From a virus, in the IMG/VR virus record IMGVR_UViG_3300027743_000001, positions 1 to 64,000 of that record: a DNA stretch of 64,000 bases, one strand, 5' to 3'. Position numbers and translations under genes: made by a program. Every line of letters starts with the position of its first letter. The first letter of the stretch is position 1. Below, in pieces: positions 5,783 to 43,374 of the stretch. The notes beneath the pieces were generated by a model. It was not told the DNA's origin. It saw only the letters and a list, made by a program, of their open reading frames with translations, and searched no databases.

Positions 5783-5811
5783 TTGACAGCCGTTGACCGA
5801 TGGTGTACAGT
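5783..5811 (+). promoter_or_regulatory. SigA/HrdB-type promoter with tandem GTTGAC
   Basis: TTGACA-N17-TACAGT; second GTTGAC 10 bp after the first. Confidence 0.85.
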
Positions 5812-5837
5812 CAAGCTATCGAACAGAGAGGGTCACT

Positions 5838-24052: not shown

Positions 24053-25705
24053 TTACGGTGTAGCCGCACCGGCGCAGCAGTAGCCCGTGTCGTCGAGCGG
24101 AGAAGTGATCCACAGCGGCAGTCCGCCGACGTTGGCCACGCTCTCGAAGATCTCGGAGAACTGCATATAGTCGTTCGTCCGGACCAACGTGGAGTCCCGG
24201 ATGAGACCGAGGTCCAGCGTGCCGCCGTCGAGCAGGAGCAGGGAGCCCTCAGGGTAGAGCGCCCACTGAACCTGGCTCGGGAAGTCCGGCAGAGGCACCG
24301 GAGTCGCCAGCGCGGCCTCATCGAAGGGCAGGTAGAACCCGCCCGGAGGAGCCGTAGTGGCGCCGCCGCCCGCGTCTGCCGCCGGCAGGGATGTGGTCGG
24401 CTGCCACGTGTCCAGGGACCACGTCACCGTGATGCCAAGATCGTTGAGGATACTGTTCAGCTCAGCCTCGGACATCGAGTAGTTGTCGGAGAGCCGGGCC
24501 GTCGAGTTCTCAGCCGTGACACTGTCGGAGACCATCAGGTCGCGGAACCACGACGGGATGATCGCGTGCAGCCGCTCGTTGTCAACCAGCCGGTTGACAT
24601 CCCTCAGGTAGGCCGCCGCCCGGTGGACCGTGCGGATGAAGTCCCGGATCGCGCCGTACGCGACGGCCGGGCCGGTCACCAGCTTGGAGAGCGACTTGAT
24701 CTGCGCCAGGAGCACCGACTCGGCGAACCGTGCCTGCTGAACCCGGAGCATCTGGGTATTGGCCGTGACCATCTCCGGGAAGATCCGGGACTGGAGCACG
24801 CCGAACTTGATACACATCGTGATGGCCTGAACCTCGGCTGTCTGCTCCGGCGGGCAGTCCGCGCGGATACAAACCTTCCAGGTCAACTCGTCGGCCGGGT
24901 CAACGGCTTCGTCGTCATCACAGGTCCAGACAGCGACGCCGCCGGTCACGTCCGAGAGCTTAGGCCCTTGGAAGTACCGGATGCCGCCACGGTCTGCCTG
25001 AAAACCGGGGAGCGCGCCGCGCACCGGCCGGTCCGTGTCGCCGATCGTGTAGAGGTCGTAGCGGGTCTCCAGCGGAGCGCAGCAGCCGCCGGCCGCCACG
25101 ATCGCCTTGGTGCTGGTCACTGCCTCGATCTTGGCCTTGTTGCCTTCCAGGTCACCGTTGTAGAGAATGCGGTCTTCCGGCGCCTTCGTTTTGATGGACG
25201 CCACGACCACCTTCTCGCCAGTGCCACCGCTCAGGCCGTGGAGGGTCCGAATGCGCTTGGTGAAAGCGTCAGCGAAGTCCTTCAGGGTCGGAATTACGGT
25301 TCCTGCCGAGTAGCCCGGGATGTCAGCACCAGCGACCACCGTACTGGTGGGCGCCACGGTAACCGGCTCGCGGTCACGCGGAACGGTCAGAGCGCCGCCT
25401 GTCTGCTGCTCCACCGGGTCACCTTCCTTTACGTCGTTGTTCTCCTCCACAGCTGCCACCAGCTGCGGTTCCACTACTGCCGCCGGCATAGCCTCGGCCG
25501 GAGCTTCTTCCTCGCCGCCACCCTCAGCACGCTTAGCCAGCTCAGCCGCCACCTGGTCCAGCGCCTCAGCGAGGCTGGCCATGAGCGCGTCGTCGGCTGC
25601 CTGGTCGGCCGCGTCAAACGCGGCTGTGATCTCGGACTGAAGATTGGTCAAGTCTTCGTCAGTGAGCGTGGCAAGAGCTGCGAGCTTCTCCGCGAACTCG
25701 TCCAT
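24053..25705 (-). CDS. major capsid protein with N-terminal scaffold-like region
   Basis: Acidic helical N-terminus; AIVAAGGCCAPLETRYD, LPGFQADRGGIRY, DGGTLDLGLIRDSTLVRTNDY. Confidence 0.93.
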   Translation of the reverse strand: MDEFAEKLAALATLTDEDLTNLQSEITAAFDAADQAADDALMASLAEALDQVAAELAKRAEGGGEEEAPAEAMPAAVVEPQLVAAVEENNDVKEGDPVEQQTGGALTVPRDREPVTVAPTSTVVAGADIPGYSAGTVIPTLKDFADAFTKRIRTLHGLSGGTGEKVVVASIKTKAPEDRILYNGDLEGNKAKIEAVTSTKAIVAAGGCCAPLETRYDLYTIGDTDRPVRGALPGFQADRGGIRYFQGPKLSDVTGGVAVWTCDDDEAVDPADELTWKVCIRADCPPEQTAEVQAITMCIKFGVLQSRIFPEMVTANTQMLRVQQARFAESVLLAQIKSLSKLVTGPAVAYGAIRDFIRTVHRAAAYLRDVNRLVDNERLHAIIPSWFRDLMVSDSVTAENSTARLSDNYSMSEAELNSILNDLGITVTWSLDTWQPTTSLPAADAGGGATTAPPGGFYLPFDEAALATPVPLPDFPSQVQWALYPEGSLLLLDGGTLDLGLIRDSTLVRTNDYMQFSEIFESVANVGGLPLWITSPLDDTGYCCAGAATP

Positions 25706-26300: not shown

Positions 26301-26615
26301 ATGAGGCTGAAGTTGCTCCTTGTAGCGCTGCCGCTCTTGTTGCTGGCCAACTGCGCACTGGCTACCCCCCTATCTTCGTGGGGATTCAGGATGCCGAACT
26401 TGGTTGGCACGAACCTGTCAAGTGCTAAGGGTCGGTTGACAGCCCTCGGATTTCCCGCCGAGAACATCGTGGTGTTTGCCGGGGACTCAGCCCCCGACCC
26501 CGTCATGGAATCCCGGTGGGTTGTGGAATCACAAGAACCATCGCCGGGGACGATGGTTCCTGTGTGTGAGGACTGCTATGTGAGCTTGGTGGTCATCCCT
26601 TTGCTGCCCGAATAG
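26301..26615 (+). CDS. secreted PASTA-domain protein
   Basis: Signal peptide, then MPNLVGTNLSSAKGRLTALGF...WVVESQEPSPGTMVP...VSLVV. Confidence 0.75.
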   Translation: MRLKLLLVALPLLLLANCALATPLSSWGFRMPNLVGTNLSSAKGRLTALGFPAENIVVFAGDSAPDPVMESRWVVESQEPSPGTMVPVCEDCYVSLVVIPLLPE

Positions 26616-29007
26616 CGTTCACCCGCTCGCGGATCTGCTTCATCCGCTGCTGCCGGGCCGCCTCGCGTGCCCGGGTGACTGCCTCTGACGCCGGCTGCTC
26701 CACGGGTGCCGCCGGCTCCGGCGTGGCTTCCTCCTGCTCGGCCTCCGGCTCCGGGACTGCCTCCACCTCAACCTCATCCGTCTCCGGGAGGGGCTCCGGC
26801 TCCGGGTCGGTCACCACGATCTCCTCAACCGCGTCTTCCTCCGGGGTGAAGAGTGCCGTCTCCACCGCGTTCAGCCTCTCCAGCACAGCTGCGTCGGCTG
26901 TCATGCTCGCCTTGAGCACAGCGAGGGACCGCGCGCCGGCCGCCACCAGTGCAGTTACCGCGCCACTAGCGACCCTGGCCCGAGCGATCGGGAAGCCCGG
27001 CACGTTGACCTGGCAAACCGCGACCAGCTCCAGCGCGCCGTTGATCGGCCGCCAGTCCCCCGATGGAGCCGACGCGCGGAGCGTGCGTACCTGCTCAGGC
27101 TTGATGTCCGGCCGGAGCGCGCCGGCCACCCAGATTCCGAACTTGTCCTCGCCCACGACCACGTCAGCCACTGCACTGGCCGTGTTGTCGTAGTGCGCCA
27201 CCGCGTGCCCAGCGTCCGCGTTCAGCGGTGCGTGGCCGCCGGCCAGTGTCAACTGGCCCACGTTCACGTCCTTGCCGCTGGCCGTGCGCAGGGTGCCAGT
27301 CATGAAGTAGCTGTAGTTCGAGCGGGAGCGCGGCGGTTTGACGCTGCCGGGGAGCCCGATGTGCTGCTGGTGCCAGTCCGCGATGTGGCCGAACACCTGC
27401 CCGTCATCCGTGTGAGTGAGCGGTGTCAACCGGTCCAGCTTCTGATCCTGAAGCCACTCGTCGGGCGGAGCCACGGGGAAGCCGCCGGCCAGGACGGCGC
27501 GCACCAGGCCCACGTCGTCCAGTGCTTCTGTGTAAATGCCGTCCTTCAGCATGTTGACGTTCCTTCCTTGAGTGTCCATCCACGCTCCGGCCACCAGAGC
27601 CGCGAGCACAGCCTGCTCGGTTGACATGGCCGCTGAGGCGTGCACATGCCCACGTCCCCGGCCCCGGCCAGGCCACTTCCCTAGAACCCTCTTGTGGAGG
27701 TTCGCGCAGTAGCCCTCAGCCCGGCCAGGCATGTATTTGTTGAGCTGACGCACGCAGCGCTTGAAGTCCCCCTTGACGCCCCACTTGATCTTGGCAGCGC
27801 CCTTCCCGGATGCCCAGTAGCGCCGGAGCTTCTCGGCCCGTGGGTCCGGGGATACAGCAGCCGTGACTCCGTCGATCTGCGTGATCACGTCAGCCAGCGA
27901 CGGATCATCCAGCTCCACGAGCGGGGGAGGGTTGACGCCGGCCAGCTCCGCCAGTAGCTCGGGGTCATCCACCCATGCCTTCTGGTCATAACGCTGAACT
28001 TTCGGCCCCGGCATGAGCCGGACCAGCGCGATCACAGCGCCGGGATCCAGATCATCGACCACTGCGAACGGGGTCCACTCCTCTTCCTCGGCCTCCGTGT
28101 CAACCGCTGCCGTGAGGGGGGAAACGATGGTGTCGTCCTTGAACGACTTGGCCGCCTTCTTATACAGACCGTTGACCCGAGACTTGATCTTGTTCTGGTC
28201 AGCCTGCGGGATCTTGACTCCGCCCCGGGCGCCGGAGAGAGCACCGGCCACCGCCGCCAAAGCGGAGTACACGATCTTGAGGTCCCCGTTGATCACGTCT
28301 GCGAACGGGAGTTTCCAGGCCGCCTGCGTCTGTGGGTCCGCGTCAGGGTCTCGGTAGAGGAATCCCTGCCCGAGCTTGCTCGTGTCGTAGGTGCCGTCCG
28401 CCTTGCGAGCCCGGGAGAACAGCCGGTTGGTGGCCGCGTCTCCGTCCCACTTCCGGCTGCGGTCCGCAAACGGCAGATCCGTGGAGCCGCTCACCGAGGA
28501 CAGGAGAGCTAGGTCCGGGTGCCCTGAGTGCAGAAATGCCGAGGGAGCCAGCCATGCTTGCGGGGTGTAGCACCTCAGAGCCAGGCCCTCCGCCCCCGCC
28601 AGGAGAGCATCAGCCAGGTCCACAGCGTCTGGCATGGTGAGCAGGATCAGGGGGTCAGAGCCCTCCCAGGGATCCCAGGCGCCGGCCGCCGTCAGCACTT
28701 CGTAGGAAGCTTCCCCCACTCGCCGGACCAGCTGCCGATAGAGCATGTCGTCGGCCGGGTCCGCCGTGGCGTAGAACCCGACGTCCTCACAGTCCGAGTC
28801 GGGGCAGGAGAGTGTGTCCCGCGCCGGCCGGCTCAATGCCGAAAGGGCGGACTCCAGAGTGTCGTCCGCCCACTTGCCACTTTCACCGCCAGACGCAGAG
28901 AGCGCCAGCAGCTGCCAGGCTCCCACTTCGTGCTGGCTAACTTCCTCACGTAGGCGCCGAGGAACCGGGTAAGCCTTGTTATATCCACACATGACTAGTG
29001 ATGTCAT
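26593..29007 (-). CDS. multidomain capsid maturation (prohead) protease
   Basis: C-terminal VFGHIADW...HYDNTASAVADV...GIWVAGALRP...SGDWR...VNVPGFP; extra domains (KLPFADVING; LRRYWASGKGAAKIKWG...CANLH). Confidence 0.85.
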   Translation of the reverse strand: MTSLVMCGYNKAYPVPRRLREEVSQHEVGAWQLLALSASGGESGKWADDTLESALSALSRPARDTLSCPDSDCEDVGFYATADPADDMLYRQLVRRVGEASYEVLTAAGAWDPWEGSDPLILLTMPDAVDLADALLAGAEGLALRCYTPQAWLAPSAFLHSGHPDLALLSSVSGSTDLPFADRSRKWDGDAATNRLFSRARKADGTYDTSKLGQGFLYRDPDADPQTQAAWKLPFADVINGDLKIVYSALAAVAGALSGARGGVKIPQADQNKIKSRVNGLYKKAAKSFKDDTIVSPLTAAVDTEAEEEEWTPFAVVDDLDPGAVIALVRLMPGPKVQRYDQKAWVDDPELLAELAGVNPPPLVELDDPSLADVITQIDGVTAAVSPDPRAEKLRRYWASGKGAAKIKWGVKGDFKRCVRQLNKYMPGRAEGYCANLHKRVLGKWPGRGRGRGHVHASAAMSTEQAVLAALVAGAWMDTQGRNVNMLKDGIYTEALDDVGLVRAVLAGGFPVAPPDEWLQDQKLDRLTPLTHTDDGQVFGHIADWHQQHIGLPGSVKPPRSRSNYSYFMTGTLRTASGKDVNVGQLTLAGGHAPLNADAGHAVAHYDNTASAVADVVVGEDKFGIWVAGALRPDIKPEQVRTLRASAPSGDWRPINGALELVAVCQVNVPGFPIARARVASGAVTALVAAGARSLAVLKASMTADAAVLERLNAVETALFTPEEDAVEEIVVTDPEPEPLPETDEVEVEAVPEPEAEQEEATPEPAAPVEQPASEAVTRAREAARQQRMKQIRERVNAIRAAKG

Positions 29008-29035: not shown

Positions 29036-29269
29036 CTAGACTTTCGTGTTGTCCTTGATCCACTCGTTCACGGTAGCTTCGTCGGTCTCTTTCCATCCTG
29101 GCTCATCGTGGATCTCCAGGAACAGCCGATCTTGATCTTCCTGCCACTTCCCATCTTTCCAGAACTCGGTCTCCGTGGTTTTCGGCCAGCCCCAGCGAGC
29201 CACTAACAGCGGCTCTCCGGTCTGTTTGCTCTTGTACATGAACCATGCTGTCGGTTCCATCACCATCAT
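29036..29269 (-). CDS. putative immunity protein (IapK-like) for the upstream toxin
   Basis: 77 aa, overlaps the toxin stop codon; aromatic/acidic pattern LVARW...EFWKDGKWQED...ETDEATVNEWI. Confidence 0.65.
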   Translation of the reverse strand: MMVMEPTAWFMYKSKQTGEPLLVARWGWPKTTETEFWKDGKWQEDQDRLFLEIHDEPGWKETDEATVNEWIKDNTKV

Positions 29270-31290
29270 CCTCTCATCACTGCTGCTACATTTCCTACAT
29301 CGGCAGGACGCTCCAAGGGTTTAGAGATTTCGAACATCTGCCGCTCCAGCTCCTCCCAGGGTGGGCTGTGCTTTACCAGCTTCCGCTGCCGCTCGTAGAG
29401 CAAATGCTGCCTGTCCTTGGCCCGTTGGGACTCAGGGGTGTGGAACTGGAGTTCAAACCGATGTCCATCGGGACCGGTGATGTCGGCGTTAATGCCCTTG
29501 TAAGCGCGTCCCTCGTTATTCCAGGAGTTGCTGACATCTACGTCATAGCCCTTGGCTCTCAGCTCGTTGATCACCCGCTGAGCGTTGGCCCCGAAGTTCT
29601 CCGGGTCATAATGCAGAGTATACCGCAAGGCATCACCGATCTCACCAGCGGCCTGCTCAGGCCCGCCGGGCAGCTTGGCCCCCTTGCTTGCGATCTTCCG
29701 GACTAGGCTGCCCTCAGTCTTCAGCCTGAACTCGCCGCCGTAGAACTGTCCATTGTCTCCGATGATCTTGCTCGGGTCATAGTCGAGACCATCAACACCG
29801 CTGATCTCACTAAGCAGGCGACTAACTACCGGTTCATCGGCCTCTACGCCAGCCAGGATCTTCCTAGCCTCGTCTTGACTCTCTGCTCCTCTTGTCACAA
29901 GCGAACGACCTGTTTCCTGCGCCCCAGTGTTCACGGGTTTTTTGTTCCTCAAGATCGCAATAGCTCGTGGAGCGTCTGAAAGTTTGTCTACGATCTGCTG
30001 TGTAGGGATTATCTCGGGGAACCCGGCTGCCGGGTCGGCTGCTTTGGGATTGCCTAGGGCATCCACGTATTCGAGCTTGGCCCCGTTCGGGGTTAGGTCA
30101 ACCACCTGTGCCCGACGCCGGGCGGCGCTGCGATCACCAGGGAGTGAGTCCGGATCGGAGAACACGTTCACCATGCCGAACTTCTCGATGAACTTCCCAT
30201 CCTTGCCACGGGGGTGCAGCCAATCTCTCCAGTCGATGGCCGCGATGATGGCCGGGTGATCCAGCAGCCTGTGCTCCCGCGCCCGCATGATGAAGGATCC
30301 GAAGAACCCCAGCGGCTCCGTGCCGTTGACGCACAGCTGCACGTATTGCTTGGCAGCAGCCACGACAGCTGACGCTGCCGTGGCTTCCTCAAAAGGGAGG
30401 ATGACCCCGTCATCAGCAGTAGGGAACTCCGGGAGCACCTCCGGGGCCACCTTACCCAGCTGCCACTCCTGCGGGATCTTGTCTAGCGCGCCGAGAGCAT
30501 GAGCCCGTTTGACCACGTACCACCGGCTATCAGGGTGCATGATGGCGTAGCGCACGGCTATCGGGAGATCTTCCGCCCGGTTGACAGAAGGGATGCTGTT
30601 ACCTGCTGCCACGACTGCGGTCTCCTGTTCAAGCGGTGCCGGAACCTCTCCCGGCATCTCGATGGTCTCTACCTCGCCCTGCGTCTTGGTGGGCAGGTCT
30701 GCCACGCTGACCGTTGTGCCGCTGGCATCGCCCGCGTCCCACACCGCCAGGGCGGACGGGGCAACCTGCACCAGTGACATGTCATCCAGAGCCGTGTTGC
30801 CCTCAGGGAGCAGGATCCACTCCCCGTCATACCGCACGTAGGCTCCCATGCCCGTCTCGATAATCAGTGTGACTACTGTGTTGTCGGGTGCGACCACAGC
30901 GTCCAGTTGGAGTGCCAACATTCCTCCCCTCATTATGTGAGCCTCAACCACTGCGAGCGGCTGCGGTACACCGGCGTCTGGTGCCATGGTCACTGCGTCA
31001 TATGGATCCAGCGGTCGGATCCGTAGTGTCTCATCCGCTGCCTCAGGGTTTGAGAAGATGGCCGTCGCCGTCAGGACACCGCCGCCCATGTCAACCGGCT
31101 CGGAGATAAAGGTGCCCCGGGTGTTGTCCTCATCTTCATCCCACACCAGCATGAGACCGTTGTCGCCGGTCTGAATCTCGACGTTGGCCCCGTAGCGGAT
31201 CGAGGTCGTGTCGTACCGCGCCGAGGTGACCGGATCAGTCCTGTGGATGGTCACCTCGATGATGGCCGGATTAGGGACTCTCATGATCAC
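29266..31290 (-). CDS. head-module protein with C-terminal RelA/SpoT-like (Apk2-type) nucleotide pyrophosphokinase domain
   Basis: FRLKTEGSLVRKI, GDALRYT, NSWNNEGRAYKGIN, FELQFHTPES, HLLYERQR. Confidence 0.88.
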   Translation of the reverse strand: MIMRVPNPAIIEVTIHRTDPVTSARYDTTSIRYGANVEIQTGDNGLMLVWDEDEDNTRGTFISEPVDMGGGVLTATAIFSNPEAADETLRIRPLDPYDAVTMAPDAGVPQPLAVVEAHIMRGGMLALQLDAVVAPDNTVVTLIIETGMGAYVRYDGEWILLPEGNTALDDMSLVQVAPSALAVWDAGDASGTTVSVADLPTKTQGEVETIEMPGEVPAPLEQETAVVAAGNSIPSVNRAEDLPIAVRYAIMHPDSRWYVVKRAHALGALDKIPQEWQLGKVAPEVLPEFPTADDGVILPFEEATAASAVVAAAKQYVQLCVNGTEPLGFFGSFIMRAREHRLLDHPAIIAAIDWRDWLHPRGKDGKFIEKFGMVNVFSDPDSLPGDRSAARRRAQVVDLTPNGAKLEYVDALGNPKAADPAAGFPEIIPTQQIVDKLSDAPRAIAILRNKKPVNTGAQETGRSLVTRGAESQDEARKILAGVEADEPVVSRLLSEISGVDGLDYDPSKIIGDNGQFYGGEFRLKTEGSLVRKIASKGAKLPGGPEQAAGEIGDALRYTLHYDPENFGANAQRVINELRAKGYDVDVSNSWNNEGRAYKGINADITGPDGHRFELQFHTPESQRAKDRQHLLYERQRKLVKHSPPWEELERQMFEISKPLERPADVGNVAAVMRG

Positions 31291-34200
31291 ACCTCATAGC
31301 TTTCCGGCAGATCGAGCAAGTTGCGGAGGTTCGGAGGCATGTACACGGGAGGCAGATCGGATGGCCGCATGGTCTTGGCCTTGGCTATGGTGACGATGTA
31401 CCGCTCTAGCGGAACCCCGTTGATAGAGACAATCCCCTTGGCCTTCAGCTTCGCGATGGCCGAGTCGACTTCTTTCTGGCTCGGAGCCGCGATCATGCTG
31501 GCCTGCTCCGGAGCGATGCCACCGCTAATGTAGTAGTCCTTGATGTTCTCCCATACCGTAAGGCTCCGCATGATGTTGCTGCCATTGTCAGGATTCCCGT
31601 ACACATCCTCCAAGGAACCGCGCATGTCACCGATGCGACCGTAGAGAGCCTCAGGGTGGTGGTAAATCATGAGTCCACCGGAGATATATACAGCCTGGTC
31701 GTTGTGGTCCGGGAGGTAGTTGTACTTCTTGGCTGAGGCATAGGCGCCATGTCCGGCGTACACGCTGGAATCGTGGACTGCGGACTGCCCGAGTCCCTTA
31801 CCAGTGGGAGCGTCCACGGCGCCCTGAAGCCGTTTGGTCATGCTGTTGACGTTGCCATACAGTGCTGTAGACGCAATGACATCCGCGTTGTTGCGCTTCG
31901 TGCCTTTGACCACAAGGTTCATCTTGCTCTTAGCCTTCATGGCAGCGATGGCTCGCTCAGACCAGAAGTAGGAAACCTTACCGATCGACTCATCAACGCC
32001 CACTCGAACGTCCTGCCAGCCCAGATCAGTGATACCCATCCACTCTCCGGCCTTCTTGAACATCTGCTCATCCGACATGCCCTGTGTGTTGTCAGCGTTG
32101 GCCTGGTCGAAGCTGACCATAGTGGACAGGAAGACCCGCGCCTGCTGCTTGGCCGAAGACTGCGTCATGGGGGAGTAACCACCCAGGCCCAGCTCAGCCA
32201 TGGCCGCCGAAAGATCCCCATCGGTTGCACCCTCAGGAAGGAAGATGTTGGTCATTCCAAACCGGGAGTCATTCTTGTACTCGCTGGCCGGGTCGATCAC
32301 CTCTATGACAACCCCGTTGCTAGCTACCAGCCGCACATTGCGGGACGTGCCGAAGTCAGGAAATGCACTCTTCGCCAACGGGACACCCTGTCCCGGCTCC
32401 ACATACAAGGTCCCGTCCGCCTGCATGCCAGACAGGCCGCCGTCTTGGGCGACGGTCCATCCCCTGGCCTGTGCCGACTGGCTCAATGAGAACTGGCCGG
32501 TCTGAAGTACCTTGATCTTGGTGGGGTCCCACGCGGTCACGGTGTAGGTGTGACCAGCAGACCACGGGGTAGTGACCGTGGACCCATCAGACAGGCTCTT
32601 GAAGGTCACTATCTTGCCGCCGGTAGCCGCGTCGTCCTGCACGTCCACCACTTCGTAGTTCGGCGGGTTGACGCCAGAGTTGTCCGGCCGCCACTGGCTC
32701 TTGAGTTCCGGCTGGCTGCTGCTTGAAGGCCGGATAGATACCCTCTCGCCTACCGCGATGCTCTCCGTAGGCTTCTTGGTGCGTACCCAGTCGCCCTGCT
32801 CCTGTGTGTCACCACTAGCCAGGTTGCTGGCAAAGGTCGCACGCTGCTCCTTGGAGAGAGCGAAGATCACCCGGTTGTACTTCTTACCGGACGGCCCGAT
32901 CGCGCGGGTCGTGAACATCTCCCCACCCCGGATGCCGGTGGAGTTGGTGACGATCGCCCGCTGCTTGCCGTCCTGCAAGGTCTTGCCCAGCGCCTCGGCC
33001 GGCGTGTCAACCGCCAGCGCCATTCCCTTAGGAACCTCCAACGGGGCCAGCGGCGCCTGGTAAGGGCCGTACTCTTCCGTGTCGAGCCGGAGCGCCGTGA
33101 CCAGCCGTGTCGACTTCTCTCCGCTGCTGGTGAGGACCACCGCGCTCTGCTTGTTCTTGCTGAGGCTGATGATCTTGCCGTGCATCGGACCCTTGCCGGT
33201 GACGTGCATGCCCGCCGTAGGGATGTAGCCGTCCTTGGTGAGCGGGCCGCCCCACGCCAGCACCACGTCCTCACTAGGTGCGCCCGGCAGGCTGGGCTTT
33301 GGCTCGGCAACGGGAGGCTTAGCCGCGTAGACGGCATAGTTAGACGGCATCTTGTTGGTGAGGAACATGGAGTGCTTGCCTTGGTCAACTGCTACGGCGC
33401 CAGGCTCATGCCCCACAGAGTAGTGGTGGAAATCTATAAACTCACCATCTATCTGCACCATCTGCATGTATTCATTGGGCTTGTGGGGGTCCCCATAGGA
33501 CACATAAATCCAGTCCCCAGGCTTCAGGTCCATACCCTTGAAGTCGGAGGCTAGGGTGATCTCCATGGTGCTCGGGTGGGGTGCCCCGATCGCGTCGTTG
33601 GCACCAGAGGCTGCCGTCTGAGGGAAGGCGCTCGGAGGAGCAACTGACAGGTCAACCTTCTGCATGCCGGAGAAGTTGCTGCCATAGACTGCGAACTCAG
33701 CTTTCTCTAGCTTCTTGGTTTCGTAGTCCTGGTAGAGCTGGTACATGAGCGGGTCGTCGGGGTCCGCGTTCGGGTCCGACACATAGACGTTGTACAGGGT
33801 CTTGTAGAGCTGCTCACCCGGCTGAAGCTCATACGTCTTGCCGTTGAACTCAATCCCAGTGACTGCCTCGACATCAACTATCTGCGGGCTGGCACTGACC
33901 GGACCAGGCCCGGAGAGGTCCGGGGGAGTCAGTGCGTCGTACTCTCCCAGCGTTCCCTGCGCGACAGACATCTTGGCATCACCGATGCCGCCCTGCGCGA
34001 GGAAAGCCAGCACAGTGGACTCGTCATGGCCAACAGTGGTGTTGATAGTTCCGTCAGCGGAAATCGCGTTGTACTTGCCATCGGGCTGCTTGACCAGGTA
34101 CTGATCCGGGATCGTCGGAGTCTGGATCTTGATGACGATGTCATCCGGCTGAGTCGTCAAGCCGTTGAACGTGCCGCCCGTAGGTCCGACATTCGGGTCG

Positions 34201-37200
34201 GGGTTGAACAGCTTGTTGAACATCCCTTGAACGGAGGGGGCTTCAGCATCAGAAGCAGCCTGCGTGGGGAAGGGGGGCGGGTCACCCTCCGCCTGGTGGA
34301 CCAACGTCTTCTTGTCGTTCGGCACCAGCCCCATGACGTGATGGGTGATGGAGGCGCCGCCCAGCTGGCCGTCATCCTTGATCGGCCACCAGGATGCACC
34401 GGGAGCGGACTGGATGTAGTAGGTGTTTGAGTCAGATATGTAGACAACAGACTCCCAGCTGCTTACCTCATAGAAGCTGTTGATCTTATCGCCAGTGGCA
34501 ACCTGATCCGGCACAGCAGGGGCGATGTCAACCACGTCAACCTGGTTGCTGAACGGGTCATGGTAGAGGTTGACCTGGTAAGGGCTGCCGTCTGAGTTGT
34601 ACTTGTTGACGGTCGTGCTTACATCAATGGAGTCATCACCGTCTATGTGGTACCAGTTGGAGCTGGCCGGAGAGGCGATGTAATACTCATTGCCGATCTT
34701 GGCAACCTGGTTTCCGGACTGAACGGATACCTTGTACCCGTTCGGGAGAGTCAACTCCTCAGTGCCGGTCCCCTGGTGGAAGTTCTTCAGGCCCATGGGA
34801 CCCTCTTGGTCGCCATCACCGACCCACGTGCCGCCCGTTCCGGCAGCGTTCACTGTCCACATCTGCCAGCCGGAAGTGGTGTGCCGACGCCAGAAGGTGC
34901 CCGACCCAGAGACAAAGATCGGATACTTCGCGTCGTCGTACTTGAGCGCCTGGTTGAGTGCCCAGCCGGCCGCGTCCTGGCCCTGGTTGCCGGTCAGCTT
35001 GTGGTCGTTTGTGGTACCCGGCCCGGCCTTCAGCTTCGTGGCCATATCATTAGCCGCGTCGATCTGGCCCTGCGTCAACTCAGCATCTATGTAGTCGGAC
35101 CCCTTACGGGTCACCCGGATACTCACGTTCGGGCCGAAGTCCTGTTTGGACAGGAGCTGAGGTGAAACTGTGCCAGCGTCGACTACTACAGCTACCTTGT
35201 CATCTCCCAGAGGCAGGTTGTTCTCCACCACGACGAATAGGTACTGGCCAGCTTCAACCTCATCTCCCGGTTCCAGGTGGGGGATGATCTGGTGAGCCGG
35301 AAGATAGGCACCGTCCTCATCGAAGATGCTGGTTTCGGTCTTCTCCACGAGCGGAGCATCTGCGTCGTACGTACCAACGGTGCCATCTGAGAAGGCCAGG
35401 TAAACAAGACTAGACCCTTCAGGGGCATCCACAAAGGTGACCACTACGACGTCATCGCCGTTGTGCACCGACTCGCCCGGCTTCAGTCCCTGCGCGGGGA
35501 CCATCGGGCCGCCGTGCGGACCCGTCGCCCCCGCAGACTCCGGCAAACCAGAAGACTCCGGGATGACCGTGGGGGTCGTGTCAACCGTGAAGTCATTCAG
35601 GACAGTTTTCAGTACGGTGAATGGAGTTTCGTTCTTGTCTATCATCCGCACCGTCGTGTCGGTGATAGCGATGATCTCGTAGCTGTTGTCGGGGCTACTG
35701 ATCGGGCTGACCTTGTGGCCGACCTTCAGCACGCCACTGTCGATCCAGGCCGCCAGCGTCTTCGCCTCATCCACCTGGCTGACGGCCGTGACCGCCGGAG
35801 CCATGGGGGAAGGTGGCTCCGGCACCGATACCGGCTCAGGCTCAGGCTCCGGAGTCGTGTCAACCGTCGCTCCGGCTTCCTCCGTGATGGTCACCGTGCT
35901 GACTGACTTACGCTTGCGGACGCCGGACGTGTTCTCGATGAACACGAACTTGCCGTCCGGGGAGATCATCACGATCTTGCCCTGGTGGCCGTCCTTGGCC
36001 AACGCCGTCATGCCGAGCTTAGGAACCTTGCCGTCCCCCGTCATCGGGGTCTTGGCGCCCACCACGTTGGCCGCCGGGGTCTTGCCAGGCTGCGTCAGGG
36101 TTGACGCCGCCTTCATCAGCTCCTTGCCGTCTTCGTCCTTGACGACAGCGCTGTAGCCCTTCTTCTTGACGTAGGTGTAGGTCTTCCCGTCCTTCTTGGA
36201 GACCACCTTCGCACCGGGTCCGGCCTCGGTACCGTCACCCAGAAGCATGCCCTTGTCATCGCTAACGACAGACTTAGCCTGCGCCTCGGCCGCCGCCTTG
36301 ATGTCTTCCTTGACCTGCGTCTCTACGGTGGCAGCCATGCCGGTCTTCTGCGGCGGTTCCGATATCTCCACCTCAGGCTCCGGGACGGGCACCGGCTCCA
36401 GCAGCTGGACGATCTCCTCCACCTCGGCCTCGGCAGCCTCGGGGAGGTTCGGCTTCTGCGCTTCCGGCGGAGGCGGATCCCAGCGCTCCACGATGTAGGG
36501 GCCGGATCCCAGGGCGTAGGTGTCCAGGATTACCGATGTGGTGTTTCCCTTGTCCCGAAGCATGACCTTCTTTTTGGCGGGGGAAACTCCCATCACCTCA
36601 TAGGTGTGGCCGTTCGGGTCGGTGATCGTGTCCCCGCGCTCGAACTTGATGGTGTGAAGATCAGCAGCATCCAGAGCGGCGCCATGGTGTGGCCGTTCCA
36701 GGTTGGTCAACGGGCTCTGGTAGTGGACATCCGTCTTAGAGCCGTACTTGTCCTTCAAGGCCCATCGCTGGTCTTGCAGCTCGTCCGGCTCCATCAGGCT
36801 GCCGTCAGTCAGGTCAACGCCGATCCTGATAGTTCCCGATCCGATCCGGACGTAGTCGCCAGGTGACGCCATATCCAGAGCTTGTCCGAGGTTCATCGGG
36901 AACCACTTGCGGGACAGGCCGTTGTTCTCGGCTACGTCCGGGACGTTTATCGGCTTGGAGGCTTCCGGAAGCGGGAGTCCATAGTGGTCAGCAATGTACC
37001 TACGGCGCGACTTGAGCGTGTCAGCCAGGGACTGAGGTAGTCCACGCTCAGAAACCAGGTCATCAATTTCTTCCGGAGAGATAGCCAGAACCCGGACGGC
37101 GCCATCCAGCTCATCCTCCTTAGGCATCACGTTCTCGCCGAAGATGGCAGCCTTCTTACCGGACCGCATGGTCTCCAGCTCCATCACCTTGTTACCGAAG

Positions 37201-39479
37201 GCGCCGCCCTTAGGTTCGCCTTGAGCCCGGTAGGTGAGAGCCCCGCCGTTGTCGATCCGCCAGGACGTGCCTTCCTTGTCGACGAACACGTTGTCCCAAC
37301 CGAGGCCGAAGACATCCCAGTTCGAGAGCCAAGCGTCAACGACAAAGTTCTTGCGGATCTGTGTCAACCACTCCTTGTCCTTCAGCTTCTCATTGATCGT
37401 CTGGCTGAGTTCCTCGCCCTCCACGATCTCGGAGTAGATGTTCTTTCCGTCGTAGTCGACGTTCGGCACCGGGACGCCAGCCGCTGAGTACAGATCATTG
37501 GCCAGCTCCTCCACCTTGCCGTGATCTTGGCTCTTGGGCTTCTTGACGTAGAACTTCTTGGCCGGGCCGCCGGCAGGGTCCGGGATGCTGTACATCCCGC
37601 CTTCATTGCTGCCGCCCTGCCCGCCGATCTTCGTAGACCCAGCGTCATCCTTGGTGAGGTGGGCAATCTTCTTTGGCGCGCGGTAGACCTGGTTGGGGCG
37701 GAGCGTCAGCTCCTTCTCGCCCGGGGTCGGCGTGCCAGACAGGTCGGACGGCTGAACCTTCAACTCAGCTTTGTCGTCTGACCCCTTGAGTATGTCCTTG
37801 ACCTGCCCGTACTTCCACTTGCCATTCTTCAGGAACTTGATGATCCCGAACTTGTTAATGAACCGGCCGTCCGCGCCACGCGGGTGTTCCCACGGCTCGA
37901 AGGCAGGAGCGGCCACGATCGGTTCCAGGAGGGGTGTCACTTCGATGCTGTTGAACAGGCCCAGCTTCTCCCAGCCGGTACCGTCGTCAGCCAGGGAGGC
38001 GTACATGACGTTGTTGCCGTACTCGTCGTCAACCGTGATATAGGTCTTCTCGTCTTCCCAGCCGGGGCCATGTGTGACCTTCATGGAGACGGTGTTGGGG
38101 TCGTCGTGCGCTCCGGTAAAAGCGAAATCGAACTTGCTCTCCCCGACCCAGAGAGAGATCGTGTCAAAGGATACTGTGGACGGAAGATGGCTCGGGTCTG
38201 TGACCTCGATCAGGAAGTCGTTGCCGTAGCCCAGAGTGATGTGGGGTATCCACTCCGGGTGCTGCTCAACCGTGCTCATCTGGTAGGCAACAACCGGGTC
38301 TGCAACGACAGCATCCCTCACACACGACAGTGCCACGTCCTCAAGCAGGAGCACCGCCGCGTCGTGGTCCCCCAGCCGGCCCCGCCCGTTCACCTCGGTC
38401 TCGATCGGGGTGCACTGCTTGGCCAGGTCGCCGAGACACTTGAGCACGTGATCCAGTTCGTCGGTTGACATGTCAGCGCTGAGGTAAGCCAGGGTCACGT
38501 GCGGGTCGTCGTCCACTACGAGCGCATTGACCGGGTCGTCAGCTGAGGTACGGCAAACGATCACCGCCGTAGGCAGCTCCTCCACCGGCTCCATCTCGTC
38601 CAGGATCAGGTCCGCGAGCAGTGCCTGAGGGAAGTTGTGCCCGACCGGCGGCCCGTAGTCGTACCCCATCGTGTAGTCAAAGACGAACGGGGAGAGGTCG
38701 GCCGATCCGGTGATCGCGTTCAGCTCCTTGGTGCGCCGCTTCACCTCATTAGATGCTCTCTTGACACGGGCTTTAGAGATCCTGACTTCTAGTTCCTGCA
38801 TCTTCCTGCGGGCGCGTAGAGTGCGCAGCTCTTTGACCCCCTTGGGGGTCAATCCAGGTTGTCCGCTAGCGGTGTCAGACGCCTTCTCAAGCTCCTTGAT
38901 CCGGGCATCATGTTGTCCAACCTCTGCTTGCTGCTTAACCAGCGACGCTTTCTGGATCTCCAGTGCGTCTTGCGCCCGTTCAATGCTGAGCTTGGCCTTT
39001 GCCTTGGAAGCCTTCAGTCTCTTCGCCTTGTTTGCTGCCGAGGTTCCGGAACCCTTGGAGGAGCCACCCCCGCCGCCGCCGCCGGACTTCTTCTTGACTC
39101 CGCCCTCATCCTTTGCCTTGGAGAGATCTTGGTTGAAGTATTTGGCCAGCACGTTGAGGGTCTGCACGTTGAGCGTGCCCGTGGGCTTCAGGCCCAGCCC
39201 AGTCTGATAGTCCTTGAGCGCCCGTGCGGTCTCCGGGCCGAAGTAGCCAGTGGCTGGCAGGTTGTAGCCGGCTCGCCGGAGCGCTTCCTGCAGCCGGGTG
39301 ACGGCCGGCCCTTGTGCTCCGACCCCTAGGCCACCATCTTTTGTGCTGCCCTGACCGGACGTGCTGAACTTGCCGCCCGTGTCCCGCTTGACCTGTGACT
39401 CCTCGAAAGCGCGTAGCCGCTGGTTCGGGTCCTTGGCCCGACTCGGCCGCTCCCGCCTCTGTTGGCCTGGTTGCGTCAC
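31287..39479 (-). CDS. giant (2730 aa) multidomain head-module protein: PG-binding, 2H phosphoesterase, HipA/PI3K-like kinase, SH3/KOW-like repeats, possible ART-like C terminus
   Basis: PGBD GPAVTRLQEALRRAGY...GYFGPETARALKDYQ; 2H motifs PHVTL and PHITL; kinase GGSNEGG...FYVK...EELANDLY...DAWLSNWDV...DN...IDNGG. Lies directly downstream of portal. Confidence 0.85.
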   Translation of the reverse strand: MTQPGQQRRERPSRAKDPNQRLRAFEESQVKRDTGGKFSTSGQGSTKDGGLGVGAQGPAVTRLQEALRRAGYNLPATGYFGPETARALKDYQTGLGLKPTGTLNVQTLNVLAKYFNQDLSKAKDEGGVKKKSGGGGGGGSSKGSGTSAANKAKRLKASKAKAKLSIERAQDALEIQKASLVKQQAEVGQHDARIKELEKASDTASGQPGLTPKGVKELRTLRARRKMQELEVRISKARVKRASNEVKRRTKELNAITGSADLSPFVFDYTMGYDYGPPVGHNFPQALLADLILDEMEPVEELPTAVIVCRTSADDPVNALVVDDDPHVTLAYLSADMSTDELDHVLKCLGDLAKQCTPIETEVNGRGRLGDHDAAVLLLEDVALSCVRDAVVADPVVAYQMSTVEQHPEWIPHITLGYGNDFLIEVTDPSHLPSTVSFDTISLWVGESKFDFAFTGAHDDPNTVSMKVTHGPGWEDEKTYITVDDEYGNNVMYASLADDGTGWEKLGLFNSIEVTPLLEPIVAAPAFEPWEHPRGADGRFINKFGIIKFLKNGKWKYGQVKDILKGSDDKAELKVQPSDLSGTPTPGEKELTLRPNQVYRAPKKIAHLTKDDAGSTKIGGQGGSNEGGMYSIPDPAGGPAKKFYVKKPKSQDHGKVEELANDLYSAAGVPVPNVDYDGKNIYSEIVEGEELSQTINEKLKDKEWLTQIRKNFVVDAWLSNWDVFGLGWDNVFVDKEGTSWRIDNGGALTYRAQGEPKGGAFGNKVMELETMRSGKKAAIFGENVMPKEDELDGAVRVLAISPEEIDDLVSERGLPQSLADTLKSRRRYIADHYGLPLPEASKPINVPDVAENNGLSRKWFPMNLGQALDMASPGDYVRIGSGTIRIGVDLTDGSLMEPDELQDQRWALKDKYGSKTDVHYQSPLTNLERPHHGAALDAADLHTIKFERGDTITDPNGHTYEVMGVSPAKKKVMLRDKGNTTSVILDTYALGSGPYIVERWDPPPPEAQKPNLPEAAEAEVEEIVQLLEPVPVPEPEVEISEPPQKTGMAATVETQVKEDIKAAAEAQAKSVVSDDKGMLLGDGTEAGPGAKVVSKKDGKTYTYVKKKGYSAVVKDEDGKELMKAASTLTQPGKTPAANVVGAKTPMTGDGKVPKLGMTALAKDGHQGKIVMISPDGKFVFIENTSGVRKRKSVSTVTITEEAGATVDTTPEPEPEPVSVPEPPSPMAPAVTAVSQVDEAKTLAAWIDSGVLKVGHKVSPISSPDNSYEIIAITDTTVRMIDKNETPFTVLKTVLNDFTVDTTPTVIPESSGLPESAGATGPHGGPMVPAQGLKPGESVHNGDDVVVVTFVDAPEGSSLVYLAFSDGTVGTYDADAPLVEKTETSIFDEDGAYLPAHQIIPHLEPGDEVEAGQYLFVVVENNLPLGDDKVAVVVDAGTVSPQLLSKQDFGPNVSIRVTRKGSDYIDAELTQGQIDAANDMATKLKAGPGTTNDHKLTGNQGQDAAGWALNQALKYDDAKYPIFVSGSGTFWRRHTTSGWQMWTVNAAGTGGTWVGDGDQEGPMGLKNFHQGTGTEELTLPNGYKVSVQSGNQVAKIGNEYYIASPASSNWYHIDGDDSIDVSTTVNKYNSDGSPYQVNLYHDPFSNQVDVVDIAPAVPDQVATGDKINSFYEVSSWESVVYISDSNTYYIQSAPGASWWPIKDDGQLGGASITHHVMGLVPNDKKTLVHQAEGDPPPFPTQAASDAEAPSVQGMFNKLFNPDPNVGPTGGTFNGLTTQPDDIVIKIQTPTIPDQYLVKQPDGKYNAISADGTINTTVGHDESTVLAFLAQGGIGDAKMSVAQGTLGEYDALTPPDLSGPGPVSASPQIVDVEAVTGIEFNGKTYELQPGEQLYKTLYNVYVSDPNADPDDPLMYQLYQDYETKKLEKAEFAVYGSNFSGMQKVDLSVAPPSAFPQTAASGANDAIGAPHPSTMEITLASDFKGMDLKPGDWIYVSYGDPHKPNEYMQMVQIDGEFIDFHHYSVGHEPGAVAVDQGKHSMFLTNKMPSNYAVYAAKPPVAEPKPSLPGAPSEDVVLAWGGPLTKDGYIPTAGMHVTGKGPMHGKIISLSKNKQSAVVLTSSGEKSTRLVTALRLDTEEYGPYQAPLAPLEVPKGMALAVDTPAEALGKTLQDGKQRAIVTNSTGIRGGEMFTTRAIGPSGKKYNRVIFALSKEQRATFASNLASGDTQEQGDWVRTKKPTESIAVGERVSIRPSSSSQPELKSQWRPDNSGVNPPNYEVVDVQDDAATGGKIVTFKSLSDGSTVTTPWSAGHTYTVTAWDPTKIKVLQTGQFSLSQSAQARGWTVAQDGGLSGMQADGTLYVEPGQGVPLAKSAFPDFGTSRNVRLVASNGVVIEVIDPASEYKNDSRFGMTNIFLPEGATDGDLSAAMAELGLGGYSPMTQSSAKQQARVFLSTMVSFDQANADNTQGMSDEQMFKKAGEWMGITDLGWQDVRVGVDESIGKVSYFWSERAIAAMKAKSKMNLVVKGTKRNNADVIASTALYGNVNSMTKRLQGAVDAPTGKGLGQSAVHDSSVYAGHGAYASAKKYNYLPDHNDQAVYISGGLMIYHHPEALYGRIGDMRGSLEDVYGNPDNGSNIMRSLTVWENIKDYYISGGIAPEQASMIAAPSQKEVDSAIAKLKAKGIVSINGVPLERYIVTIAKAKTMRPSDLPPVYMPPNLRNLLDLPESYEV

Positions 39480-39481
39480 GG

Positions 39482-40981
39482 TCAGCCTCCAAGAATCTGC
39501 TGCGCTGAGTCAGGCATCGGGACTGGAGATTCTGCTACGTTCTGTTCCCGCTCGGCCTCCAGCACGTTGGGAAGCGCCACGTTCAGCAGGGCTACCGTTA
39601 CGTCCGGTGGCAACATTCCCTTGGAGGCAACCAGCATGAGCGCCAGCTCCTGCTCCGTGGGAGCATCCGTCTCGGCCAGCCCGTTCTCCCGGCGCCATGC
39701 CTTGGGTCCGACCAGGAAGTGCTCAAACCCGATTGTCACTTCCTCGGACTGGTTGGGCCGGGTCACGATCTGGGAGGGGTCGTACCAAACCACAACGCGG
39801 CCGACAGCTGCCGGCTCGAACCCCTCGGCCAGCAGTCTGGTGCGGAGGTACATTTCCGTGGTTGCATCCGACAGCGCCAGCGCCAGCGGCTCAATGTTGG
39901 CCTTGTACAGGTTGTCATCGATGACCACCGCGTTGCTGTACTTGACGGCCGCCAGGCCGGCCACCATTTCCTTGGGAACGTCGATGCCCTGAAGGATGCG
40001 TTCCAGGGAGCGCTCCGCCCGGTTGACAAGCCACTCATCGCTGCTGCGCTCGAACGTCAGGTGTCGGATGGAGGAACCCTGATCGCTTGGCCCGGTCACC
40101 ACCATGGGAACTACGGAGCTAGCACTGCCTTCGTCCGAGACGGGGGTGACCATAGCGTCCATCAGCTCGGCCACGAAAGCGTTGCCGGGGTCTACTACGG
40201 CCTGCTCACCATCTGTCTCGTCTGCGTTTGCCACGGTGGCCGAGGCGACCGTGATGCCATCCGGAACGAAAAGAAGGCCGGCATTCAGCCGGCTGCGGGT
40301 CGCCGAGCGGACCAGCCGCTGGAGCATCAGCAGCTCCTCGATGGAGTCCGTGAGCGCCATCAGCGAGGAGTCCGGCTCCTTGGAATACTCCGGGTGCTCA
40401 CGCCACACCCGAGCTATGTAGGTGCTTGTTGGCAGCGGCTTCTGTTCTCCACCACGTAGCGGCTGATACAGGACTGAGTTCTGTTCTACCTTGACTTCCT
40501 TTGTGGACTTGAACGCCCACTCTCCGCTGCCCGGCATCTGCATGAAGTAGACCTCGCCGGCCACGTTCATGTTGAGAGCGAAGGACCGAACCTTAGAGCT
40601 GAAGTTGGAGGTCGTGAACTCCAGCATGATCTCCTGAGCGCGCTTGGCCAGGTCGTCGTCAACCAGGCCCTTCTCCGCTGCCTCCGTGATAGAGGTCGGT
40701 GCCTGCTCCGGGTCCAGCACCACGGCCGGGTAGAGTCGGATCCGGGAGAGGATGCTGCCGACCAGGTTGAACCCGTAGTGGATCTCTCCCACCCGCTCGT
40801 ACCCGATCCAGGCGTCGGTCTGCCAGACCTCCCAGGGACGCGAGCCCGGCTGCATCTCTTTGACCTTGATGCGCTCGGTTGAAGCCGTAATAGGGCGTTG
40901 CGCGTTGTATGGCGCCGCTTTGGCCGGGCGCGCAGCTGACGGCTTGTCGGCGCGGGGATTATCGCGTGTGAAGAGGCCCAT
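39482..40981 (-). CDS. portal protein
   Basis: WQTDAWIGYERVGEIHY, SRIRLY, SRLNAGLLFVP, VVWYDPS. Confidence 0.9.
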   Translation of the reverse strand: MGLFTRDNPRADKPSAARPAKAAPYNAQRPITASTERIKVKEMQPGSRPWEVWQTDAWIGYERVGEIHYGFNLVGSILSRIRLYPAVVLDPEQAPTSITEAAEKGLVDDDLAKRAQEIMLEFTTSNFSSKVRSFALNMNVAGEVYFMQMPGSGEWAFKSTKEVKVEQNSVLYQPLRGGEQKPLPTSTYIARVWREHPEYSKEPDSSLMALTDSIEELLMLQRLVRSATRSRLNAGLLFVPDGITVASATVANADETDGEQAVVDPGNAFVAELMDAMVTPVSDEGSASSVVPMVVTGPSDQGSSIRHLTFERSSDEWLVNRAERSLERILQGIDVPKEMVAGLAAVKYSNAVVIDDNLYKANIEPLALALSDATTEMYLRTRLLAEGFEPAAVGRVVVWYDPSQIVTRPNQSEEVTIGFEHFLVGPKAWRRENGLAETDAPTEQELALMLVASKGMLPPDVTVALLNVALPNVLEAEREQNVAESPVPMPDSAQQILGG

Positions 40982-42708: not shown

Positions 42709-43374
42709 CTAGGGATGGAATGTCAACCAACACCGGCATCCGATCACTTCGTCCAGCGGAGCGCTTGGGTCTCCAGGGAACCGAAGTTCGATCCCTTCTG
42801 GTGTCACAAAGTTGTCGGAGATCGGTACGGTACTACCGGGGTAGTTTCGCGATCCAAGTATTGCATGAGAGGTTCGTACCCTGGTATCCCCGACGTTATG
42901 CCACCGCTTACGGGTCAGCCCGATCTCGTCGGCCGCCGCCATCTGAGCGGAGGAGATCACCGCGTGGGCTACCAGGTTGTGCAGCCGCTCCGGATCCAGG
43001 TAGTCGGGGGTCTCGCCCGGGGCCGGGGGGTCATCGTGAACGCTTCTCACAACTGCCTTGGCCGCCTTGACCAGCGTTTGCATCCCGGCATCATGGCCAG
43101 CCTCACGGCCTCGGTCAGAAGCGGCCAGCAGTGCCTCAGCGCGCCGTGCGGGGGAGGCGTCCCGCTGTCTGGCCAGAGCACGATCGGCCACCCCGTAGAG
43201 CGCACCGCCGATCGTCTCCGGGAGCCCGAGCGTGCCAGCGATCTTCTGCCAGGATCCTGTCACCGTGCCGCTGGTGGCACCGTAAGCAGCGTAAGCCGCT
43301 AGTACCACAGCCAGCGCGGGGAGCAGAGAGTTGGCTTCCTCTTCCTGCTCCTCCGGTGGGTTTGGCTGTGTCAT
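42709..43374 (-). CDS. MuF-like minor head protein (short form, no toxin extension)
   Basis: KRWHNVGDTRVRTSH...LRFPGDP...IGCRC. Confidence 0.88.
   Translation of the reverse strand: MTQPNPPEEQEEEANSLLPALAVVLAAYAAYGATSGTVTGSWQKIAGTLGLPETIGGALYGVADRALARQRDASPARRAEALLAASDRGREAGHDAGMQTLVKAAKAVVRSVHDDPPAPGETPDYLDPERLHNLVAHAVISSAQMAAADEIGLTRKRWHNVGDTRVRTSHAILGSRNYPGSTVPISDNFVTPEGIELRFPGDPSAPLDEVIGCRCWLTFHP

Follow-up and report, generated by a model that had tools for sequence, protein, structure and literature searches.

The window analysed here, a whole stretch of 64,000 nucleotides, covers the opening 64 kb of an IMG/VR record of 86,542 bp (IMGVR_UViG_3300027743_000001) that has direct terminal repeats, is judged complete and derives from an uncultured, actinophage-like virus. 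Among its head genes, on the minus strand at 31287..39479, lies a single open frame for a protein of 2730 amino acids (aa; 293 kDa, isoelectric point (pI) 5.07), referred to below as the giant, whose domains, relatives and likely role in infection are considered here. An open reading frame (ORF) of this length and position had been claimed in the initial annotation of the sequence and is borne out. A GGAGG ribosome-binding site, read directly at 39486..39490 on the minus strand, stands 6 nucleotides ahead of the GTG start at 39479, this start lies 2 nucleotides beyond the portal stop codon (TGA, 39482-39484), and the giant's own TGA stop overlaps the GTG of the next gene. A second record, IMGVR_UViG_3300027743_000025 (86,173 bp), encodes a collinear relative with 70.8% identity over the whole length, which indicates that the gene is real and under selection. 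The giant gene is a real, translationally coupled late gene situated between the portal gene and the protease and capsid genes.

Gene order was taken from PHROG and Pfam scans, and every gene in this module is on the minus strand. The large terminase gene (43371-44894) is followed by a small MuF-like gene of 221 aa (42709-43374; weak in Pfam, E 0.0058, and clear for PHROG head-morphogenesis families, 1.2e-16), by several small ORFs and then by the portal gene (39482..40981; phrog_776, 8.7e-88), which is directly upstream of the giant. Downstream come a gene for a 674-aa protein (29266..31290), with its own IIAA and HPRGKDGKF module at aa 348-367, an 804-aa protein (26593..29007) in which aa 517-692 form a head maturation protease domain (phrog_18402, 9.1e-58), a 172-aa ORF and the major head protein (24053-25705). 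The giant had been placed between portal and protease; the portal is indeed its immediate upstream neighbour, but the protease lies two genes downstream, with the 674-aa gene intervening. The protease domain of the 804-aa protein is presumed to be the enzyme that processes the giant. As separate observations, the C-terminal 155-180 aa of the 674-aa neighbour match PHROG 'head morphogenesis' families, and the C-terminal protease of the 804-aa protein is preceded by a long N-terminal part with several sites of the xTAA type described below, one of which is followed by 'GAWDPW', recalling the start of the HPRG module without HPRG itself.

The giant begins with a peptidoglycan-binding domain (PGBD) of the PG_binding_1 family (PF01471; aa 56-111, 39147..39314, minus strand), as had been read from the letters at about 39140-39330. 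The Pfam match (E 2e-14; 53.9 bits against a cut-off of 23) covers the full length of the model, positions 1-57 of 57, and endolysin-type peptidoglycan-binding structures match the domain weakly. It is followed by a Gly-rich linker and a segment that by composition is basic, Pro-poor and probably helical (aa 112-262, 38694..39146, minus strand); aa 151-262 hold 29 Lys or Arg and 2 Pro in 112 residues, with a pI of 10.6, so that of the basic coiled coil annotated earlier the basic character is upheld. In BLAST mapping against 13 representatives of the family described below, no relative outside the giant's own lineage matches aa 1-299, and a Pfam scan of two related contigs (L007 and L009) found the 2H domain present and the PGBD absent. 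Because none of the 13 representatives matches this region, the PGBD and basic helix are, on the mapping, a recent addition in the giant's lineage.

The second enzymatic feature predicted at the outset, a 2H phosphoesterase domain with both HxT motifs, is also recovered (aa 295-460, 38100..38597, minus strand; HVT at 327-329 and HIT at 413-415). Pfam 2_5_RNA_ligase2 (PF13563) matches aa 323-445 above its cut-off (29.8 bits against 27; a close family relative, P0004, reaches 23.9 bits), both motifs (H327-V-T329 and H413-I-T415) are invariant in 5/5 aligned relatives, and a profile of the family matches LigT-type structures in the PDB (2fyh, E 2.3e-5; 1vdx, E 4.6e-5). By these three lines of sequence evidence the 2H fold, though not the substrate, is certain. 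Assignment of the domain to Acb1 was rejected, since the LigT-type structures score best, the Pfam Acb1 model (PF23474) does not match the giant at E <= 1 and the Acb1 structure 7t26 is matched by the family profile at an E of 0.097. Viral 2'-5' or cGAMP phosphodiesterases are matched at E 0.56-0.9. All cysteines of the giant fall within the 2H domain (Cys309, 348, 356 and 386), and the remaining 2,344 residues (aa 387-2730) are Cys-free.

Between the 2H domain and the kinase-like domain lies a short module that the giant has in common with its neighbour. An IVAA tetrapeptide (aa 521-524, 37908..37919, minus strand), a candidate maturation-protease site and module boundary, precedes a small basic beta-rich module (aa 525-610, 37650..37907, minus strand) that carries the motif HPRGADGRF at aa 532-540. 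A self-search of the genome aligned this module with the one in the 674-aa protein (49% identity, E 1.7e-5), and both contain 'W.HPRG.DG[KR]FI.KFG', starting at aa 532 in the giant and at aa 359 in the neighbour. Among the collected proteins that have both an HPRG motif and an upstream extension, a tetrapeptide of the form [VILM][TVIL]A[AST] stands 5-10 residues before the motif in 24/26 (a count that takes in close relatives), against 2.6% of random 20-aa windows; in four further proteins the HPRG motif falls within the first 13 residues. Five related MuF proteins (P0010 and P0014-P0017) have the site and the HPRG motif directly after the NCRC end of the MuF domain. The tetrapeptide also occurs more often than expected in other head proteins of this virus, namely 4 times against 1.1 in the 674-aa protein, 5 against 1.6 in the 804-aa protein and 4 against 1.3 in the major head protein, where two of the four lie near the N-terminus. 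From these patterns we infer that IVAA and HPRG may represent a processing site and an address or recognition module, respectively. The herpesvirus protease assemblin cuts at (V/L)-x-A/S, which resembles a site of this xTAA type.

The module leads into a protein-kinase-like domain (aa 611-850, 36930..37649, minus strand) in which all catalytic motifs are intact. They run in the order Gly-rich loop, ATP-binding Lys, alphaC Glu, a WLxNWD...DN catalytic stretch and an IDxGG metal-binding Asp, and G623, K646, E657, D722, D729-N730 and D743 thus stand in the order expected of the protein-kinase-like superfamily. In an alignment of 18 sequences with 30-90% identity to the giant's domain, the invariant positions are G623, K646, E657, D715, N720, D722, D729, N730, R741, D743, G745 and G746. 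A layout in common with E. coli HipA can be followed by eye ('FQWLIGATDGHAKNFS ... PFYDIIS' in HipA against 'DAWLSNWDVFGLGWDNVF ... RIDNGG' in the giant), with a Gly-rich loop, a Lys, an alphaC-type NE..A..LY..G..VP, WLxNxD...DN and a later Asp in the same order. Unlike HipA, the giant has a catalytic loop that is 3 residues longer and an Asp in place of the Lys in HipA's D-x-H-x-K-N, the model for the HipA N-terminal domain was not matched in a Pfam scan of the protein, and no HipB-like partner was noticed beside the gene, where no search was aimed at one.

Among the 18 homologues, 8 match Pfam HipA_C (best 9.2e-5), 3 match HipA_2 (0.0021) and 1 matches APH (1.1e-4), all below the curated cut-offs, and the HipA_C matches whose coordinates were seen cover profile positions 8-65 only, that is, the N-lobe. 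None of these three models matched the giant's own domain, and PHROGs recognised 2 of the 18 members, through one unnamed family. The domain is therefore not assigned to the HipA family, because the curated Pfam cut-off is not reached in the protein or the genome. The earlier proposal of a HipA/PI3K-like kinase holds insofar as every motif is present and invariant in the 18 sequences, but the HipA/PI3K name is not carried by any Pfam kinase match in the giant or the genome. Taken on its motifs, the domain is probably an intact protein-kinase-like enzyme of a HipA/PI3-4K-like branch.

The kinase recurs on proteins that are themselves associated with phage heads. A single search returned 41 homologues among longer proteins, and their precomputed Pfam domains include MuF (PF04233) in 18, ADPrib_exo_Tox in 15, NUDIX in 10, PF13563 in 3, SNF2 helicase with InPase in 3, the portal-type PF06381 in 2 and Phage_min_cap2 in 1. 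In P0034 the order is Acb1-NUDIX-kinase-ART (ART, ADP-ribosyltransferase), and the kinase is there joined to a true Acb1 domain. Among cultured phages, tblastn matched the kinase region in 20 of 25 matching records, the other five matching the 2H domain alone. Eleven are Gordonia phage records with 35-37% identity over aa 486-883; the others are Morganella, Escherichia, Enterobacter, Pseudomonas, Yersinia and Aeromonas phages and an Actinomycetia phage, with 34-42% identity. In some of the matching cultured phages the kinase-bearing protein is annotated as an ADP-ribosyltransferase. By these domain combinations the kinase appears as a recurrent payload of head carriers and is widespread in head-associated phage proteins, and no study of it on head carriers was found in the article texts searched. 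As a separate observation, P0006 (1849 aa, from a metagenome) has two tandem kinase-like domains, at aa 973-1188 and 1351-1550.

Much of the remaining sequence belongs to a conserved scaffold. Approximately 1,900 of the 2,730 residues (~70%) are other than known enzymes, namely the HPRG-barrel, a post-kinase block, a pair of barrels and the C-terminal 590 aa, which surround a middle part peculiar to the lineage. The post-kinase block (aa 851-1145, 36045..36929, minus strand) is conserved within the giant family only and no known domain was found in it; its identity with the partner domain found after the kinase on other carriers was rejected (hhalign 0.06%, phmmer without matches). Two barrel-like repeats, at aa 1146-1204 (35868..36044, minus strand; E 7.8e-24) and aa 2080-2140 (33060..33242, minus strand; E 4e-32), were found with an iterated profile seeded on the latter, and they bracket the middle region. 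Marginal copies were also returned at aa 1079-1133 (E 0.066) and aa 947-988 (E 0.22), and a single-sequence scan gave one significant pair only (aa 1131-1195 with aa 2065-2129). In 7 of 8 other family members compared there are two strong copies at corresponding places, and the distant member L011 has one. Several SH3/KOW-like repeats had been described here; two copies are significant, but further ones are marginal and no SH3, KOW or Tudor model of Pfam matches the giant at E <= 1. In the acidic middle region (aa 1205-2079, 33243..35867, minus strand) no domain was found, and phmmer at E <= 1e-3 matched it to none of the proteins P0002-P0076 and P0197-P0209.

The C-terminal block (aa 2141-2730, 31290..33059, minus strand), with a core at aa 2397-2697, is the part that characterises the family. 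Across 31 sequences P2415, A2426, D2490, G2500, S2507, G2542, G2553, G2564, D2570, D2625, G2628 and G2688 are invariant. The C-terminal 641 aa match 34 cluster representatives among 1.84 billion, all of them unannotated, and in 17/17 of the hits that exceed 1,200 aa no more than 26 residues separate the end of the match from that of the protein. A near-length profile search with the domain returned 13 proteins, 10 named 'hypothetical protein' and 3 nameless, none with a Pfam domain, and among viral contigs the profile found four more relatives with 43-44% identity and three with 24-25%. Searches of Pfam gave nothing beyond noise at E <= 10 in 10/10 members and the profile had no PDB match at E <= 10. 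The domain was also considered as a hidden MuF and rejected, hhalign against 18 MuF domains giving 0.1-0.2%. On these alignments it is best described as a conserved, family-defining and previously undescribed domain that always stands at the extreme C-terminus.

A weak ART call had been made for this end of the protein, according to which aa 2510-2730 would modify host proteins with NAD+. The sequence AGHGAY (H-G-x-Y), a conserved Tyr and a Glu (the E2658 column, 10/10 rows) follow one another loosely in H-Y-E order, and ART domains accompany the kinase in 15 of the 41 other proteins; however, the Pfam and PDB searches just given were negative for ART as for everything else, and hhalign against 18 ADPrib_exo_Tox domains taken from kinase-bearing proteins, a comparison set outside which the H-Y-E clade profiles (DarT, PARP, Tpt1) fall, gave 0.05% and 0.1%, at the level of the negative control, in which the kinase was compared with ART (0.1%). 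Furthermore, the His is Ala in two relatives and is replaced in distant ones, and the sole upstream Arg candidate is Lys in the giant. The ART call is accordingly abandoned as highly improbable.

Comparison across viral contigs indicates that the giant is a member of a rare syntenic family and not a one-off assembly of domains. The family is syntenic in 8 viral contigs, with the order portal, giant, then protease and capsid genes. In 4/4 closer contigs (L007-L010) the order is portal, giant (frames of 2957-3288 codons), a homologue of the 674-aa protein, protease and capsid. Two distant contigs (L011 and L012) have portal, giant (2541-2544 aa), protease and capsid, with 39-40% identity in the kinase and 25% in the C-terminal domain, and in a third (L013), truncated at its 5' end, protease and capsid follow a 2340-aa open frame, so that giant, protease and capsid keep their order in 3/3 distant contigs. 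By BLAST mapping the plan common to the family starts with a 2H domain that some members lack, continues through the HPRG module (aa 525-610) and the kinase into the post-kinase block, which reaches aa 1204, and, after a middle that varies, closes with the C-terminal block from about aa 2060. Of 13 representatives with both the kinase block and the C-terminal block, 9 also have the 2H domain and 4 start at the HPRG motif.

One possibility is that the giant is mainly structural and serves in ejection or as a conduit, much as the internal core proteins of T7 or the ejection proteins of P22 do; a long beta-rich body with almost no cysteine, the PGBD and the invariant C-terminal domain would build or guide the DNA path across a thick wall, with the 2H and kinase domains as accessory passengers. 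The share of conserved non-enzyme scaffold (~70%) would suit such a protein, as would the fixed positions of the C-terminal block and two barrels in every family member (apart from the single barrel copy detected in L011), the optional nature of the 2H domain, absent from 4/13 full-length representatives, the PGBD itself, the confinement of cysteines to aa 309-386, and synteny across distant contigs like that of a core structural gene. However, no lytic, pore-forming or transmembrane features were found in the giant, the PGBD and basic helix are limited to the giant's lineage, and the kinase catalytic residues are intact in all members examined, which argues that the kinase is not a mere passenger. 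A conduit function is therefore considered unlikely, though not negligible.

The PGBD and the barrel-like repeats could instead be displayed on the outside of the capsid, where as a decoration or adhesin they would stick the virion to cell walls, and the same phage does encode collagen-like fibres. Against this, a kinase and a 2H enzyme that depend on ATP or substrate would be useless outside the cell, the PGBD is lineage-specific and the family is not, and the slot from portal to protease typically holds head-associated cargo fusions such as those of MuF. External decoration is thus very improbable.

The explanation favoured here, at slightly better than even odds, is that the giant is a capsid-packaged, multi-enzyme 'polyvalent' cargo protein built on a carrier other than MuF. 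A multi-domain protein in the head module had been claimed from the outset, and PG_binding_1, 2H and kinase-like domains are all found in one ORF between the portal and the protease and capsid genes. The kinase and HPRG module recur fused to MuF, portal-type (PF06381) or minor-capsid domains, and the earlier suggestion of delivery together with the genome fits these fusions. In the proposed sequence of events, the giant would be made late and co-assembled into the procapsid via the conserved scaffold. The head maturation protease in the C-terminal domain of the 804-aa protein would then cut it at IVAA/P (aa 524/525), yielding a 524-aa piece with PGBD, helix and 2H domain and a 2206-aa core that carries the kinase, and both pieces would exit the capsid with the DNA. 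The peptidoglycan-binding domain may act at the cell wall, the 2H enzyme may hydrolyse 2',3'-cyclic or 2'-5' phosphodiester substrates, such as damaged RNA ends or nucleotide immune signals, and the kinase may phosphorylate a host target ahead of any phage gene expression.

Several results weigh against this proposal. In the giant, Pfam at E <= 1 recovers neither MuF (PF04233) nor a portal domain nor anything else known to anchor proteins in capsids, and packaging, processing and injection are inferred from context for every family member. The association of tetrapeptide and HPRG motif in 24/26 proteins overstates the independent support, and the giant's own sequence shows no enrichment of the tetrapeptide (4 against 3.0 expected), just one copy lying at a module boundary. 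With regard to the kinase, the Pfam HipA_C (PF07804) and HipA_2 (PF20613) models found nothing in the whole virus genome, a kinase profile matched no solved kinase in the PDB (CtkA, E 1.5), and hhalign against HipA, for which the comparison set was low in diversity (all at >= 73% identity, plus YjjJ), gave 4.2%, 16.2% and 40.2% as the HipA alignment grew, with the alphaC region of the N-lobe alone aligned. Finally, a HipA-family kinase in the same genomic slot is read by Benler et al. (2021, PMC8008677) as having a late, non-injected immunity function.

The last point supports a different account, in which the giant is a late cytoplasmic enzyme that is not packaged and acts in the producing cell, for instance to shut down host responses while virions are assembled or to exclude superinfecting phages. 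The 'Gratiaviridae' kinase of Benler et al. likewise lies between portal and capsid genes, and so a kinase of this general kind has a printed precedent there; the lack of a capsid-anchoring domain in the giant by Pfam points in the same direction. In contrast, the kinase is fused to MuF in 18/41 large homologues, and to other head proteins, the common HPRG module and xTAA site fit processing by a head protease, a peptidoglycan-binding domain has no obvious use in the cytoplasm, and the giant gene is translationally coupled within the head operon. A cytoplasmic role is accordingly rated improbable, and the packaged cargo protein is retained as the preferred explanation.

The idea of head-packaged effectors is itself in print. 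In Iyer, Burroughs, Anand, de Souza and Aravind (2017, PMC5512222), 2H domains fused to MuF or portal are read as head-packaged and an RNase-like action or degradation of immune nucleotides is proposed, and PMC9503650 repeats the head-packaged reading of such fusions. Judged against the polyvalent proteins as described there (PMC5512222), the giant unites wall binding, 2H and kinase in one polypeptide among late head genes; it thus combines disparate domains and is linked to late head genes, without a MuF or portal domain inside. It differs in that the Pfam scan found no MuF, portal or zincin peptidase domain and in that its carrier is a conserved scaffold that opens with the HPRG-barrel and closes with a novel C-terminal domain. 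Their kinase lacks a C-terminal subdomain, is found mainly in Verrucomicrobia-Chlamydia and Bacteroidetes and, judged by its description, seems unlike the giant's; the comparison covers the article text and not its domain lists (LPD1-40), which may overlap.

The MuF polymorphic toxins and MuF-ART fusions (Jamet et al. 2017, PMC5576092; PMC9503650) are similar in placing effector enzymes on a head-associated carrier. MuF fusions also have the same kinase domain and HPRG motif as the giant, but MuF in the present virus is a separate small gene, as is gp75 in Gordonia phage Forza. A term search of the text of PMC5576092 returned no mention of the kinase, linker, HPR motif or cleavage.

The closest cultured relatives are gp78 of Forza and its counterparts in Sixama, Boopy, BlueNGold, Mareelih, GodonK and Phendrix, which belong to the Gordonia matches described above. 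Forza likewise has a small gene for MuF (gp75) and a portal gene (gp77), directly after which comes gp78, with a 21-aa leader ending in ALTAA, then HPRGADGRF and then the kinase. It differs from the giant in its length (734 aa) and in having no 2H, PGBD or detected C-terminal family domain, and it is annotated as a 'hypothetical protein'. Forza gp78 and its kin make packaging, cleavage and both enzyme activities directly testable.

The architecture of the giant and its carrier are new and its C-terminal domain is, to judge from the database comparisons, undescribed, while the principle of polyvalent injected effectors had already been published, which limits the surprise. If the proposal is correct, actinobacterial phages bring ready-made enzymes into their host on a carrier other than MuF, and the HPRG-barrel with its upstream xTAA would be a candidate for a processing signal and address label, of possible use in directing chosen proteins into capsids. 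A more speculative extension, possible but doubtful, is that a whole MuF-independent family of cargo or ejection proteins exists, with a portable address module (protease site, HPRGxDG[KR]F and small barrel), a novel anchor or ejection domain at the C-terminus marked by its invariant D/S/D/D residues, and a pre-made 2H enzyme and atypical kinase that disarm nucleotide immunity or translation before transcription.

Some minor observations concern the motifs and the surrounding genes. A relaxed form of the HPRG motif, R...G[KR]F, matches six times when the genome is read in all six frames, four times within long ORFs. One lies near the N-terminus of the giant (aa 32-38, 'KRDTGGKF', 39365-39385, minus strand) and reads 'KRDPSGKF' in the 70.8% relative; as a general feature of the family this N-terminal motif was rejected, since other members start directly with the 2H domain. 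Another, 'QPRDKQGRFAS', forms the C-terminal tail of a 202-codon frame on the plus strand (5787-6395). At the C-terminus, a number of relatives (P0052, P0059, P0062, P0065, P0070, P0072, P0074 and P0076) have '..LDLPxSY' followed by a short Ala/Pro/Thr-rich tail in which VTAAA or VVAAA is frequent, internally or at the very end, a tetrapeptide of the kind that also precedes HPRG; the giant ends right after ..ESYEV, without such a tail. Beyond the head genes, a collagen-repeat, tail-fibre-like gene of 600 aa (44907-46709, minus strand) sits immediately upstream of the large terminase gene, which is not where fibre genes are usually placed.

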